Source: Eledone cirrhosa (lineage: Eukaryota). From it: a stretch of 64,000 nucleotides of DNA. Numbering within the stretch: position 1 is the first letter of the stretch; each line of letters begins with the position of its first letter. Below are positions 14,100-63,250 of this stretch, in pieces. Under the pieces are notes generated by a model. The model made no database searches. It worked only from the letters and a program-made list of their open reading frames with translations, and had not been told where the DNA came from. Where the stretch lies: contig OZ024742.1 of NCBI GenBank assembly GCA_964016885.1, forward strand, positions 20,336,001-20,400,000, written 5' to 3'. The translations under genes and the position numbers were made by a program.

Positions 14100-17000
14100 T
14101 ATATATATATATGTATATATATATATATATATATATGTATATATATATATATGTATATTTATATATGTATATATGTATATATATATATATATATATATAT
14201 ATGTATATATATGTATATATTTATGTATATATATATATATATATATATATGTATATATATATATGTATATATTTATGTATATATATATATATGTATATAT
14301 ATATATATGTTTTTATATATATATGTATATATGTATATATATATATATGTATATATATATATGTATATATATATATATATGTATATATATATATATATGT
14401 ATATATATATATGTATATATGTATATATATATATATATATATATGTATATATATATATATGTATATATATATATATGTATATATATATATATGTATATAT
14501 ATATATATATATATATATATATATGTATATATATCTATATGTATGTATATATATATATATGTATATATATGTATATATATATGTATATATGTATATATAT
14601 ATATGTGTATATATATATATATATGTATATATATATATATATATGTATATATATATATGTATATATTTATGTATATATATATATATATATATGTATATAT
14701 ATATATGTATATATTTATGTATATATATATTTATGTATATATATATATATATATGTTTTTATATATATATGTATATATATATATGTATATATATATATAT
14801 GTATATATATATATTATATATATATATGTATATATATATGTATATATATATGTATATATATATATATGTATATATATATATATATATGTATATATATATA
14901 TGTATATATATATGTATATATATATATATGTATATATATGTATATATATATATATATATATATGTATATATATATATGTATATATATATGTATATATATA
15001 TATATGTATATATATATATATGTATATATATATATATGTATATATATATATATATATATGTATATGTATATATATATATGTATATATATATGTATATATA
15101 TATGTATATATATATATATGTATATATATATATATGTATATATATATATATGTATATATATATATATGTATATATATATATATGTATATATATATATATG
15201 TATATATATATATATATATATATGTATATATATATATGTATATATGTATATATATATATATATATGTATATATATATATATATGTATATATATATATATA
15301 TGTATATATATATATATATATATATATATATATATATATATGTATATATATATATATGTATGTATATATATATATATATGTATATATATGTATATATATA
15401 TGTATATATGTATGTATATATATATATGTATATATATGTATATATATATATATGTATATATATATATGTATATATATATATGTATATATATATATGTATA
15501 TATATATATGTATATATATATATGTATATATATATATATATGTATATATATGTATATATATATATGTATATATATATATGAAATATATATATGTATATAT
15601 ATATATGTATATATATATATGTATATATATATATATATGTATATATATATATATATGTATATATATATATGTATATATATATATGTATATATATATATAT
15701 GTATATATATGTATATATATATATGTATATATATATATGTATATATATATATATATGTATATATATATATATATGTATATATATATATGTATATATATGT
15801 ATATATATATATATGTATATGTATATATATGTATATATATATATATGTATAATATATATATATGTATATATATATATGTATATATATATATATATATATG
15901 TATATATATGTATATATGTATATATATATGTATATATATGTATATATGTATATATATGTATATATATGTATATATGTATATATATATATATATATGTATA
16001 TATATGTATATATGTATATATATATATATATGTATATATATGTATATATGTATATATATATATATATATATGTATATATATGTATATATGATATATATAT
16101 ATATTATATGTATATATATGTATATATATGTATATATGTATATATATATATATGTATATATATGTATATATGTATATATATGTATATATATACATATCTA
16201 CATATATATATATATATGTATATATATGTATATATGTATATATATGTATATATATGTATATATGTATATATATATATATATGTATATATATGTATATATG
16301 TATATATATATATGTATATATATGTATATATGTATATATATATATATATATGTATATATATGTATATATGTATATATATATATATATTTATGTATATATG
16401 TATATATGTATATATATGTATATATATGTATATATGTATATGTATATATATATATATTGTATATATATATGTATATATGTATATATATATATATATATGT
16501 ATATATATATATGTATATATTTATGTATATATATATATATATATATGTATATATATATATGTATATATTTATGTATATATATATATATGTATATATATAT
16601 ATATATATGTTTTTATATATATATGTATATATGTATATATTATATATATATATATATATATGTAATATATATGTATATAATGTATATATATATATATGTA
16701 TATATATGTATATATGTATATATATATATATATATATATGTATATATATGTATATATGTATATATATATATATATGTATACTATATGTATATATGTATAT
16801 ATATGTATATATATGTATATATATGTATATGTATATATACTATATATATGTATATATATGTATATATGTATATATATATAATATATGTATATATATGTAT
16901 ATATGTATATATATATATATATATGTATATATATATATGTATATATGTATATTAATATGTATATATATGTATATATATGTATTATATGTATATATATGAA

Positions 17001-17545
17001 TATATATGTATATATATGTATATATGTATATATATATATGTATGTATATATGATATATATGTATATATATGTATATATGTATATATATATATATGTATAT
17101 AAATGTATATATGTATAAATATATATATGTATATATATATATGTGTATATATATGTATATATATGTATATATATGTATCTATTATAGTAATATATATGTA
17201 TATATAGTATATTTATATATATGTATATATATGTATATATATATATATATATATATATATACTATATATATATATATATATATATAATAATATATATATA
17301 TATGTATATATATGCATATATTATATATATATGTATATATATATATATATGTATATATATATATATATATGTATATTCTATATCTATACACACTCTATAA
17401 GTCTATATATATATCTCTATATATATATATGTATATATATAATATCTCATATATATATGTATGTATATATATATATGTATATATATATATATATATATAT
17501 ATATATATATATATATATATATATGTAATATATATATATCTATAT

Positions 17546-18204
17546 CTGGATCCTCAGAACCTTCCAGTCGAGAGATTCCCGCACCATTATCCTTCTCTTC
17601 TCTACTTTTCCCCGACCACACCTTGAATACTGTTGTCCACTGTGGTCTCCCCACACGAAACAAAGTATCATGAAACTTGAAGCTCCTCAAAGGGCAATCA
17701 CGAAAAAGATAGATGGCATGTCAGACCTGGACTACTGGGGTCGAGTAGAAAACCTGAAACTTTACTCACTCCAACGTCGCCGTGAGCGTTATATTATCTG
17801 CATGATGTGGAAAATGTTCCATCATCACTGACAAATATTGATGGATACACCCAAGGCTTGGGCCCCGTGCTATCCGTCCCATACAAAAATCTAAATCGCA
17901 ACTCATAACAACAATACGGCACAATTATTTCACCTCAATCGGCCCTGCTCTCTTCAACATCACACCAGGACACGTCAAAACAGAAACTGACCACACAAAA
18001 TTCAAGAAGTCTTTGGACAAATTCCTCCATGTAATCCCGGACAAACCACCCACACCCGGATATGTCTCCGCAAACAGTAATTCTCTTCTCGAATGGGCCA
18101 TGGTGCCCAAATCCTGAATTGAAAGACTTCGCCAGGTGGTGCTATTAAGTTAGACATGGCCTGGGCCAATACTGGCCAAAACATTTCAAAGTTACTCAAA
18201 GTTA
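17546..18204 (+). mobile_element. CR1-group LINE copy A (3' fragment, degenerate)
   Basis: Matches the 3' end of the intact copy at 55269-59615; small deletion near 17830; TTCAAAGTTA-type tail runs into TA. Confidence 0.93.
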
Positions 18205-19629
18205 TATATATATGTACATATATATATATATGTATATATATATATATGTGTATATATATATATATATATATATATATATATATATATATATATATGAATA
18301 TATATATATATATATATATGTATATATGTATATATATATATATATATATGTATATATATATATATATATATATATATATATATATATATATATATATAAG
18401 TATATATATATGTGTATATATATATATATATATATATATATATATATGTATATATATATATATATATATATATATATATATATATGTATATATATATTTC
18501 GTTTCTGAATTTGTTATATATATATATATATACATATGTACTATATATATATATATATATATATATATATATATATATATATATATATATATATATGTAC
18601 ATATATATATATATGTATATATATATATATATGTACATATATATATATATGTATATATATATATATATATGTGTATATATATATATATATATATATATAT
18701 GTATATATATATATGTATATATATATATATATATGTATATATATATAATATATATATATATATATATATGTATGTATGTATATATATATATATATATGTA
18801 TATATATATATATATATCTATATATATATATGTGTGTATATATATATATATATTGTGTATATATATATATATGTGTATATATATAATATGTGTATATATA
18901 TATATATGTGTATATATATATATATATATATGTATATATATATATATATGTATATATATATATATATATATATGTATATATATATATGTATATATATATA
19001 TATATATATATAGGTATATATATATATATATATGTATATTTATATATATATACATATATGTATATTTATATATATATATATGTATATATATATATGTATA
19101 TATATATATATATGTATATATATATATATATATATATATATGTATATATATATATGTATATATATATATATATGTATATATATATATATATGTATATATA
19201 TATATATGTATATATATATATATATGTATATATATATATATGTATATATATATATATATATGTATATATATATATATATATATATGTATATATATATATA
19301 TATGTATATATATATATATATGTATATATATATATATATGTATATATATATATATATATGTATATATATATATTTATATATGTATATATATATATATATG
19401 TAAATATATATATATATATGTATATATATAGGTATATATATATATATGTATATATATATATATGTATATATATATATATGTATATATATATATATGTATA
19501 TATATATATGTATATATATATATATGTATATATATATATATGTATATATATATACATATATATATATATATATATATAATATACCTATATATATACATAT
19601 ATATATATATACATATATATATATATATT

Positions 19630-60860: not shown

Positions 60861-62614
60861 TGTATGTATATATAATTATATATATATGTATGTATATATA
60901 TATATATATATATATGTATGTATATATATATATATATGTATGTATATATATATATATATATATATATATATGTATGTATATATATACATGTATGTATGTA
61001 TGTATATATATATATATATATGTATGTATATATATATATATGTATGTATATATATATATGTATGTATATATATATATGTATGTATGTATATATATATATA
61101 TATGTATGTGTAGGTATGTATATATATATATATGTATATATATATATATATATGTATGTATATGTATATATATATATATATGTATGTATATGTATGTATA
61201 TATATATATGTATGTATATATATGTATATATATATATATGCCTGTATATATATATGCATGTATATATATATATATGCATGTATATATATATATGTGTATA
61301 TATATATGTGTATATATATATATATGTATGTACATATATATATATGTATATATATATATGTATATATATATGTATATATATATATATATATATATGTATA
61401 TATATATGTATATATATATGTATGTATATATATATATATTTATATATATATATATGCATGTACATATATATATATGCATGTATATATATATATATGTATA
61501 TATATATATGTATATATATATGTATATATATATATATATATCTATATATATATATGTATATATATATATGTATATATATATATATGTATGTATATATATA
61601 TGTATATATATATATGTATATATATATGTATATATATATATGTATATATATATATGTATGTATATATATATGTATATATATATATGTATATATATATATG
61701 TATATATATATATGTATATATATATATGTATGAATATATATGTATATATATGTATGTATATATTTATATGTATATATATATATGTATGTATATGTATATA
61801 TGTATGTATATATATATATGTATGTATATATGTATATATATATATGTATGTATATATATATATGTAAGTATATATATATATATATATGTATGTATATATA
61901 TATATATATGTATGTATATATATATATATATATATGTGTATGTATATATATATATATATATATATATGTATGTATATATATATATGTATGTATATATATA
62001 TATATATGTATGTATATATATATATATATATGTATGTATATATATATATATGTATGTATATATATATATATATATATGTATGTATATATATATATATATA
62101 TATATATATATGTATATATATGTATATGTATATATATATATATGTATATATATATATATGTATATATATATATGTATATATATATATATGTATATATATA
62201 TATGTATGTATATATATGTATATATATGTATATATATATATATGTATATATATATGTATGTATATATATATATATGTATGTATATATATGTATATATATA
62301 TGTACGTATATATATATGTATATATATGTATGTATATATATGTATATATATATGTATGTATATATATGTATATATATATGTATGTATATATATGTATATA
62401 TATGTATATGTATATATATGTATATATATATATATGTATATATATATATATGTATATATATATATATATATGTATATATATATGTATGTATATATATGTA
62501 TATATATTTGTATATATATGTATATATATATGTATATATATGTATATATATATATATATGTATATATATGTATATATAGTTAAAAGAATAGAGGTGTAAC
62601 ACACAAGTTATTAT

Positions 62615-62852
62615 ATATTGGTAAACGGAATAGAAAATGCTGACAAATTGTTCACAGTTGAAAACAGCACGGACACTCTATCTCAAAATTATTCTTGAAA
62701 AGCATTTAGAAATGCGCAACCGGTACAAACTTAAAAACTTAAAACCACAACTGAATACTAACCCATACAATCACTAATACTCTTTTCTTCCTAATTAAAC
62801 CATTTTTCAACTGTGAACAATTTGTCAGCATTTTCTATTCCGTTTACCAATA
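62615..62852. mobile_element. ~240-bp element with ~50-bp perfect terminal inverted repeats
   Basis: TATTGGTAAACGGAATAGAAAATGCTGACAAATTGTTCACAGTTGAAAA and its exact reverse complement at the right end. Confidence 0.85.
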
Positions 62853-63250
62853 TGTATATATATATATATATACGTATATATATATATGTATATATATATA
62901 TATGTATATATATATATATATATATGTATATATATATATATGTATGTATATATATATATGTATATATATATGTATATATATGTATGTATATATATGTATA
63001 TATATGTATGTATATATATGTATATATATATATATATATATAGTATTAAGGGTACTATTTATGGTTATGTATGCAATAAAACCTTTGATGGTAATATATT
63101 ATATATACACAAACCCTAAATAGTGAGAGATAGTCATTAATTACTATCCTATTACCAGTAAGATAAATAGCTCAATGTAATAACATCAGTTGTTTTACAG
63201 AGCAGTTATATAGAGATTACAGTAATCAAAGTTCAGTTTAAGTCATTTAT

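Follow-up and report, generated by a model that had tools for sequence, protein, structure and literature searches.

A strand-polarised array of degenerate (TA)n with TG interruptions, holding retroelements of several unrelated families, occupies most of a 64,000-nucleotide stretch of the Eledone cirrhosa genome (assembly GCA_964016885.1, contig OZ024742.1, positions 20,336,001 to 20,400,000; hereafter, the window), which was chosen for its oddness. The explanation that we consider rather probable is that one such TA/TG array, likely grown by slippage, acted as an insertion sink, which Penelope-like elements entered by the preference of their own endonuclease, and CR1- and RTE-type elements because of the meltable TA and its pairing with their tails. 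The predicted 49-kb (TA)n nest was recovered by TRF and segmentation of the window: degenerate (TA)n blocks span 14099 to 63042, and the nest of 48,942 bp is composed of 24,091 bp of TA-like sequence and 24,851 bp of inserts. The compound array itself (14099..63041, no strand assigned) amounts to approximately 24 kb in 27 blocks, which is a minimum extent. An older short TA-flanked piece at 13878..13950 (- strand) matches a small TA-flanked island at 26125-26210 (75%), so that the left edge of the array lies nearer 13880; the right edge lies beyond what the window shows, as the region 63040-64000 contains no SINE and may be a further insert. The block at approximately 16.6-17.5 kb is noisy-looking.

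The + strand carries the G in 26 of the 27 blocks, beside inserts of both orientations, and because this polarity is constant next to inserts of either orientation, the TA sequence is the target and not a carried tail. The possibility that TA was brought as a tail by the main CR1 family, CR1-A, was ruled out, since the polarity is not flipped beside the minus-strand copies. For 25 inserts, the same array variants recur on the two sides more often than in shuffled pairs (p 5e-5 to 1.5e-4 in six settings; p 0.044 for the eight CR1/RTE inserts alone), with poor continuity for CR1-A copies 1, 4, 5 and 6 (ranks 21, 18, 13 and 22 of ~24), and one 8-mer array variant has 25 of its 28 occurrences in the two blocks bordering a second CR1 element, CR1-B. 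The G polarity and the variants matching across inserts point to a single pre-existing array that was split by insertions. Moreover, the same spacer measures ~28 bp in one copy of a duplicated segment and 76 bp in the other, which indicates that the array is older than the inserts and that its length was altered later; of the original prediction of insertion plus TA expansion, it is this change of TA length after the duplication that was observed. The nest is probably a few million years old and younger than most of the SINEs in the flank.

The predicted six CR1 copies, RTE, second CR1 tail and several Penelope pieces are all present in the nest. CR1-A encodes an ORF2 with an APE endonuclease and a reverse transcriptase (PF14529, PF03372 and PF00078) and, upstream of it, an ORF1 of 405 amino acids with a weak Myb/SANT match below the cut-off; from this architecture, we take the family to belong to the CR1 clade. 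Named matches to it include a protein of Argonauta (64%) and RT proteins of storks (38%). The six copies have six different 5' ends and are therefore independent events. Copies 1 (17547..18203, + strand), 2 (28218..30497, - strand) and 3 (36277..36711, + strand) are 5'-truncated; copy 4 (39255..42486, + strand) carries a 258-bp 5' inversion at 39255-39512; copy 5 (43141..47077, + strand) is a probable full-length copy, save for an internal ORF2 deletion of ~730 bp at 46516, and has a putative 5' UTR at 43141-43501; and copy 6 (55271..59605, - strand) has an open ORF1 (58354-59571) and an open ORF2 (55346-58483, APE and RT). Altogether, four of the six copies are clearly truncated. Copies 2 and 6 diverge by 0.22%, and the idea that they represent a false haplotype duplicate was ruled out by their different ends and neighbours. 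The CR1-A tail consists of one to two copies of a 10-bp unit, without poly-A, and at this locus all six 3' junctions join TA in the same register, with an overlap of 3 nt between tail repeat and target. CR1-B is represented by a single 3' tail (35432..35713, - strand) with 40% amino-acid identity to the CR1-A C-terminus.

The inverted part of CR1-A copy 4 matches 44814-44559 and the forward part restarts at 44835, so that 20 nt are missing at the inversion point; a 4-nt match to the target is observed, and the 3' tail is intact. Copy 4 has a twin-priming-type structure (n = 1), of a kind rarely seen outside L1. Its layout of inverted 5' segment, small loss and short target match is the same as that of twin-primed mammalian L1 (PMC2912911, PMC4245944), although here the element is of CR1 type and its host an invertebrate; in one of these studies (PMC4245944), inversions occurred with human L1 in human cells only, save one Nimb insert, and never with ZfL2-1.

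The six predicted 610-bp retroposons are likewise found, as six copies of a putative retroposon that are all on the + strand and correspond to five independent events. At the left edge of the nest there is only a 147-bp 3' fragment (13953..14099), with (TA)4 two bases upstream and the array beginning at its 3' end. The other copies are located at 22393-23000, 31967-32574, 53651..54211 (5'-truncated by ~45 nt), 54244..54851 (full length) and 60258..60859. The count of five follows from the fact that the copies at 22393 and 31967 belong to one duplicated segment of ~2 kb, present as copy A (22216..24240, + strand; a 135-bp island, the 610-bp copy and downstream islands) and copy B (31793..33670, + strand). 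Eight landmarks have the same order in both copies, which are 3-5% diverged and differ in their later inserts. The 610-bp element is non-coding and has a fixed 3' end, staggered 5' ends and no tail repeat, and its 5' half presumably resembles an RTE 5' UTR. No match was found between this element and the RTE fragment of the window, the fetched loci or proteins, and its frames gave nothing under E 0.38 against 240 fetched proteins. An Rfam scan of the window gave nothing at gathering score, the 610-bp stretch having 16 weak matches, all below gathering scores, and a relaxed descriptor for an HDV-like ribozyme gave 126 loose solutions in the element, with none convincing among those listed. The 3' end of the element was absent from the prokaryote contigs scanned, and a motif match to one viral contig, of 19 nt only, was rejected as chance.

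Two larger Penelope-like pieces were identified. P1 (19628..20414, + strand), a candidate canonical PLE with a C-terminal endonuclease (Neptune/Nematis-like), comprises a C-terminal GIY-YIG-like end, a CA-rich UTR and a hammerhead-like core at 20162 with a 6-bp stem, and ~20 bp of its 3' end recur in inverted form at 18497; the linker region is missing from this fragment. P1 has no Pfam match, and the Atlas lead to GIY-YIG (0.92) concerns 15% of the members of that cluster. Its assignment to Naiad was ruled out, as the frame does not extend beyond the GIY-YIG-like end and is followed by the hammerhead-like core. P2 (47173..52180, - strand), of the Hydra clade, has a 5'-truncated RT together with a GIY-YIG at the C-terminus, in two frames (50452-52184), and its 3' part probably includes a 2.5-kb CA/TA tract and the sequence 47173-47770. 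A CxCX5C linker precedes the GIY-YIG, CxxC and CxH lie around the conserved E and N, and there is no CCHH motif; the N-terminal RT motifs of its homologues (DKT in 10/10, RW[KR] in 8/10) fall where P2 is truncated. Hammerhead core letters are present in P2 at 47302 (- strand), with a stem II that failed the scans, and a PDB search with P2 gave nothing relevant. Among the smaller pieces, one of Penelope type (23286..23561, + strand) is palindromic, has hammerhead-like cores in its two arms and is absent from duplication copy B; another of that type (52840..53204, + strand) is terminal and contains a hammerhead-like core at 53033; and a short family may be a Penelope-type end or a MITE, with copies at 24771..24858 (+ strand), 32966-33070 (- strand) and 62579-62851, the last with 49-bp inverted arms. 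The RTE-type 3' fragment (37408..38461, + strand) has an open RT frame, a (TAGA)n tail and short duplicated letters at its 5' junction; many of its relatives are APE-RT proteins of ~1000-1100 amino acids (best 78%).

TA-alternating DNA is found on both sides of 18 of the 21 scored elements, as predicted for nearly all of them, against a background of 0.76% of left-flank positions and none of six flank SINEs; target-site duplications are unreadable within TA. Of the three remaining cases, one is a CR1 5' end within the A/TA-rich UTR of the element itself, and the others are a pair of 610-bp copies with a TA/TG spacer of ~30 bp between them. Furthermore, of 25 events, not one is located within another element. 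Under a model that assumes uniform insertion and uses our own event list, the probability of zero nesting is 2.7e-4 if the order is random, 3.6e-3 if CR1-A came last and 0.028 for all events in the order that favours chance most; it is 0.017 for the set of 12 CR1/RTE/610-bp events, and for CR1-A alone it is marginal and not significant (0.059). That the insertions entered TA rather than each other is supported. The segregation of families that had been proposed was also seen, in that CR1-A and the 610-bp family have no match in 1-13.9 kb and the left-flank SINE family has none inside the nest; taken alone, absence from a flank of 13.9 kb carries little weight, and the absence of SINEs from the nest is largely an age effect, because full SINE copies are 69-82% alike, whereas the nest families are 94-99.8% alike. 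Also present in the flank are three short pieces of SINE that are nearly identical (96-100% across 67-72 bp).

CR1-A was also searched for outside the window. No copies were found in the metagenome, viral or prokaryote contigs of three public collections, and parts of CR1-A are present in 20 of 24 listed sequencing runs from 10 studies, of which those with small shares are left aside. Of four runs that were mapped, X24, X16 and X1 contain the family as multi-copy and diverse, and X21 gave 0 reads; the mapping skipped 40 letters at the TA flank, where a depth of 0 carries no meaning. X24 has its loose ends at AATT sites, and these resemble library joints. In X1, the best-supported loose end near the CR1-A tail is an A/T run and not alternating TA (62 contigs, agreement 0.59, with repeat skipping biasing against TA), and a weak row shows a divergent tail abutting TA (12 contigs, agreement 0.72).

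According to the mechanism that we favour, a small array would have grown by slippage while serving as an insertion sink, and ~25 insertions and one 2-kb internal duplication would have split the TA/TG microsatellite. Penelope elements would cut TA through their own endonuclease preference, and CR1- and RTE-type elements would be drawn by TA that is readily melted and nicked and that pairs with the 3' tails of these elements, the CR1 preference being a substrate effect and not that of a sequence-specific nuclease. More TA would provide more target, in a positive feedback. An overlap of CR1, L2 and RTE 3' ends with their targets by one to several bases is described in PMC6007223; long AT tracts are reported to form non-B structures, and the fragility of AT tracts is described in PMC11797062; passages of PMC12220107 hold nothing on targets.

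It had been proposed that APE and GIY-YIG types converged on TA. For the Penelope side, a bias towards TA is already on record for the clade identified here; that the endonucleases of CR1-A and the RTE-type element themselves became TA-microsatellite-specific, as in Waldo, Mino, Kibi and Koshi elsewhere, appears unlikely to us, and a meltable TA substrate with tail pairing is ranked likelier. The common register of the six CR1-A junctions would agree with an evolved target, but tail-target pairing alone explains a fixed register. Two near-full-length young CR1 copies within 49 kb, compared with the 787 recent CR1 insertions of near-full length in the 2.8 Gb of O. vulgaris (PMC13282606), also speak for such a target, as does the weak X1 row, whereas the larger X1 row is not TA and RTE and CR1-B each occur in the nest as one copy. 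Among 23 CR1-A relatives (35-55% identity, at least 150 nt past the ORF), none has (TA)4 within 500 nt, in short-read contigs that may under-represent TA flanks; relatives with similar tails are located in non-TA DNA, which argues against a clade-wide specific nuclease, and the CR1-only nesting probability of 0.059 is marginal.

That same value would suit passive accumulation, in which elements would insert without preference and persist in a hotspot that is free of genes, low in recombination or open in chromatin, while TA expands around them. An octopus genome does contain hotspots in which TEs take up 76-94 kb of every 100 kb, and the same cause was proposed for Drosophila Waldo-A/B near CA repeats (PMC3812793); nevertheless, we find this improbable in view of the zero nesting in 25 events, the junctions with base-exact TA at both ends, and the lack of the SINE family in the nest despite the three near-identical pieces in the flank. 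It is more improbable still that the 610-bp element carries a TA/TATG tail and that its edge copy founded the array, later copies re-entering in the same orientation by tail pairing. The 3' end of the edge copy does coincide exactly with the start of the array, no other tail is present in the element, and its copies agree in orientation with the G polarity, but the orientation bias (5/5 independent events, P=0.06) is not significant, (TA)4 and the older TA-flanked piece lie upstream of the edge copy, and full-length copies have TA on their 5' side as well. Least probable of all, in our judgement, is an assembly artefact joining separate TA-flanked loci or haplotypes via TA blocks or 99%-identical CR1 copies. 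The noisy-looking block could be taken as a sign of it, and the polarity would survive a join within a TA block; on the other hand, array variants carry on across inserts, exact matches between pairs of 19 blocks reach 122 bp at most, the duplicated segment has a divergence of 3-5% and different later inserts, and the near-identical CR1 copies differ in ends and neighbours.

The Waldo, Mino, Kibi and Koshi LINEs are members of the R1 and Tx1 clades. Their targets are ACAY, AC, TC or TTC, and no TA-targeting or CR1 case is listed in the review PMC3812793; the likeness to our locus lies in an APE-type LINE entering one microsatellite repeatedly and in a fixed register, here at one locus only. 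Almost all Hydra families insert in (TA)n, with Mollusca among their hosts (Craig et al. 2021, PMC8557442, which also covers Neptune and Naiad). P2 shares with them the CxCX5C linker, the CxxC/CxH motifs and the C-terminal endonuclease, but here one array is common to Penelope and APE-type LINEs, and P2 may include the 2.5-kb CA/TA tract and so exceed the reported length of <3 kb (PMC8557442). The safe-haven and independent-origin argument for TA microsatellites has already been published for MuTAnT, Micron and TAFT (PMC4486113), likewise unrelated families using (TA)n; those are plant DNA transposons at dispersed sites, whereas here retroelements share one array of tens of kb. The 610-bp element resembles bipartite non-autonomous RTE elements (PMC5786205) in lacking coding capacity and in combining a fixed 3' end with staggered 5' ends, but differs in its lack of a match to the RTE of the window, of a ribozyme (none found) and of a tail repeat.

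At present, the locus is a single well-preserved example of a known tendency, the TA habit being already known for Penelope and, genome-wide, putative for CR1-A. We put forward only tentatively, and with some doubt, that an octopod CR1 family prefers (TA)n genome-wide, together with Hydra-clade Penelope, RTE-type and non-autonomous elements, that self-feeding strand-polarised TA sinks of tens of kb absorb much young retrotransposition, and that open TA lets CR1 use twin priming. If the TA preference were genome-wide, a CR1-type family would join the short list of microsatellite-seeking APE LINEs, some octopus TE hotspots would have a sequence-level cause, and many young insertions would be missed by short-read assemblies. 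Combining unrelated nucleases with a single array, layers that can be dated and an internal duplication, the locus provides a natural test of the roles of nuclease and DNA in target choice.

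To the left of ~13.9 kb the window consists of ordinary AT-rich DNA, and thereafter TA blocks alternate with inserts up to 63,041. The original prediction, which described a degenerate (TA)n nest holding several element families, is confirmed: by our own insert list its 48,942 bp comprise 24,851 bp of inserts and 24,091 bp of TA-like sequence (including a 2.5-kb CA/TA tract), and TA alternation is found at both sides of 18 of the 21 scored elements, as compared with 0.76% of left-flank positions and 0/6 flank SINEs. The array is impure, with a longest (TA)n run of 84 bp and G interruptions all along. 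Odd letters and phase shifts are commoner at 16600-17540 than in the remaining array, and the consensus quality is possibly lower there. The unclassified non-TA sequence at 63040-64000, without SINE matches, may be a further insert, with the nest extending beyond the window.

A polarised array existed first; elements were inserted into its TA, its length changed later, and one duplication took place. G lies on the plus strand in 26/27 blocks, the sole exception being a tract assigned to the Penelope-like element P2 (47173-52180, minus strand). The polarity is not flipped beside minus-strand CR1 copies and therefore TA as the tail of these copies was ruled out. Short blocks of reversed polarity (C on the plus strand) were observed at 19550-19626, 32700-32800, 38940-39060 and 42960-43140, three of them a short way upstream of element 5' ends; at these places the self-complementary array may have folded back and become inverted locally.

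An assembly artefact is an unlikely origin of the nest on several grounds. Array variants are common to both flanks of 25 inserts more often than in shuffled pairs (p 5e-5 to 1.5e-4, 6/6 settings), this sharing being weak for eight CR1/RTE inserts (p 0.044), with four copies of the main CR1-type family (CR1-A) ranking poorly. Moreover, a ~2-kb segment is duplicated (22216-24240 and 31793-33670) with eight landmarks kept in order, and its two versions are 3-5% apart, gained different inserts afterwards and have a TA spacer of about 28 bp versus 76 bp, so that the array length changed after the duplication. The longest exact match among 19 blocks is only 122 bp.

Since the TA-flank score is partly circular inside a TA nest, the mutual avoidance of inserts was tested. 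None of 25 events is nested in another element. If insertion is uniform and the TA already had its final length, an assumption that favours chance, the probability of no nesting, with duplicated inserts excluded, is 2.7e-4 for random order, 3.6e-3 when CR1-A is inserted last and 0.028 under the order most favourable to chance; restricted to the 12 CR1, RTE and 610-bp events it is 0.017, and restricted to CR1-A it is 0.059. The pooled preference for TA is solid, and a CR1-specific one is only suggestive. Elements abutting TA also occur outside the nest: one with internal repeats, whose 3' end looks Helentron-like, lies at 3660-4822 with (GT)n on one side and a (TA)63-65 run on the other.

CR1-A, provisionally labelled CR1 from its architecture and tail, has six copies with six distinct 5' ends and pairwise divergence of 0.2-2.7%. 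Copy 6 (ORFs at 55346-59571, minus strand), with both ORF1 and ORF2 open and APE and RT domains, differs by 0.22% from copy 2 and is a candidate recently active copy. Its ORF1 contains a poly-Q tract and matches Myb/SANT weakly; the nearest named homologue of ORF2 is from Argonauta hians (64%), which together with the P2 matches and the flank SINEs makes an octopod source probable. Copy 5 has an internal deletion of ~730 bp, and copy 4 a 258-bp 5' inversion of twin-priming type (39255-39512), a type reported almost only for L1. CR1-A junctions have a fixed register, with 3 nt common to tail and target. A second CR1-type tail (35432-35713, minus strand) shares 40% protein identity with CR1-A, and an RTE-type fragment (37408-38461, plus strand) has an RT match and a (TAGA)n tail. 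Over its final ~90 bp (28248-28307) CR1-A has a read depth ~2-5x that over its body in run X16, and the excess is larger again in X1, which points to a SINE or to numerous very short copies with the same tail.

Six copies make up the 610-bp family. All of them lie on the plus strand, share one fixed 3' end and start at staggered 5' positions; the five long copies are 3.0-5.8% apart. Neither a long ORF nor an Rfam match was found, nor any partner among the sequences within reach of comparison, and the element is likely a retroposon. P2, the largest Penelope, has the Hydra-clade defining motifs set out in PMC8557442; its ten homologues carry DKT in 10/10 and RW[KR] in 8/10, and its protein matches include an Argonauta protein. 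Across three inserts, stem-bearing hammerhead-like cores are seen at four places. An inverted ~20-bp piece of the 3' end of a second Penelope-like element (P1, 19628-20414, plus strand) sits alone in TA at 18497-18516, 1.1 kb upstream. A small family (62579-62851, 24771-24858 and 32966-33070), with 49-bp perfect inverted arms in the longest copy, is either a Penelope-type end or a MITE.

The flank SINEs, which presumably resemble octopus SINEs, are 69-82% alike when full, and the nest families 94-99.8%. Their absence from the nest is largely an effect of age, since old SINEs could not enter it before it was there. Three short, internally deleted SINE pieces (2462-2533, 3063-3136 and 5937-6006), within 3.5 kb and among otherwise old ones, are 96-100% alike, and given these some true exclusion is possible. 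At the 0.0036 per million years used in PMC13282606, borrowed from O. bimaculoides, the 610-bp copies are, as a rough estimate, about 4-8 million years old and CR1-A less than 4.

In three of four sequencing runs (reads and contigs) CR1-A is a diverse multi-copy family; the loose ends are divided, 62 contigs leading into an A/T run and 12 showing a divergent tail that abuts TA, the TA flank itself being skipped. Among 80 metagenome relatives, 29 reach the ORF end, 23 of them with at least 150 nt beyond it. AAGT-type tails like those of CR1-A occur in many of these, and (TA)4 within 500 nt in none of the 23. TA targeting is therefore not a trait of the lineage at large, though TA is under-represented in contigs built from short reads. 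The interpretation put forward in the original prediction, a convergence on TA, is partly supported: pooled insertion into TA stands, and the safe harbour is a hypothesis.

Flank notes are often published in Repbase Reports. A literature search, mostly of titles and abstract openings, returned no TA-targeting CR1 family or such cephalopod nest. APE LINEs specific to microsatellites target ACAY, AC, TC and TTC (PMC3812793), unrelated DNA transposons use TA safe havens (PMC4486113), and octopus TE hotspots have been described, with no target analysis in the text consulted (PMC13282606). Hydra, Neptune and Naiad elements have a (TA)n bias (PMC8557442), and the Penelope part of the nest is already known behaviour; for the CR1 part, a TA preference is plausible on the evidence of this one locus.

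CR1, L2 and RTE 3' ends overlap their targets (PMC6007223), and long AT tracts adopt non-B structure and break (PMC11797062). TA may melt, be nicked easily and pair with the tails of unrelated elements. In ZfL2-1 the absence of inversions was put down to a short overhang (PMC4245944); the single inversion in CR1-A copy 4 fits easily melted TA, because open TA would lengthen the overhang. Unrelated elements would in this way gather in TA without each evolving a TA-specific nuclease, and slippage afterwards would enlarge the target.
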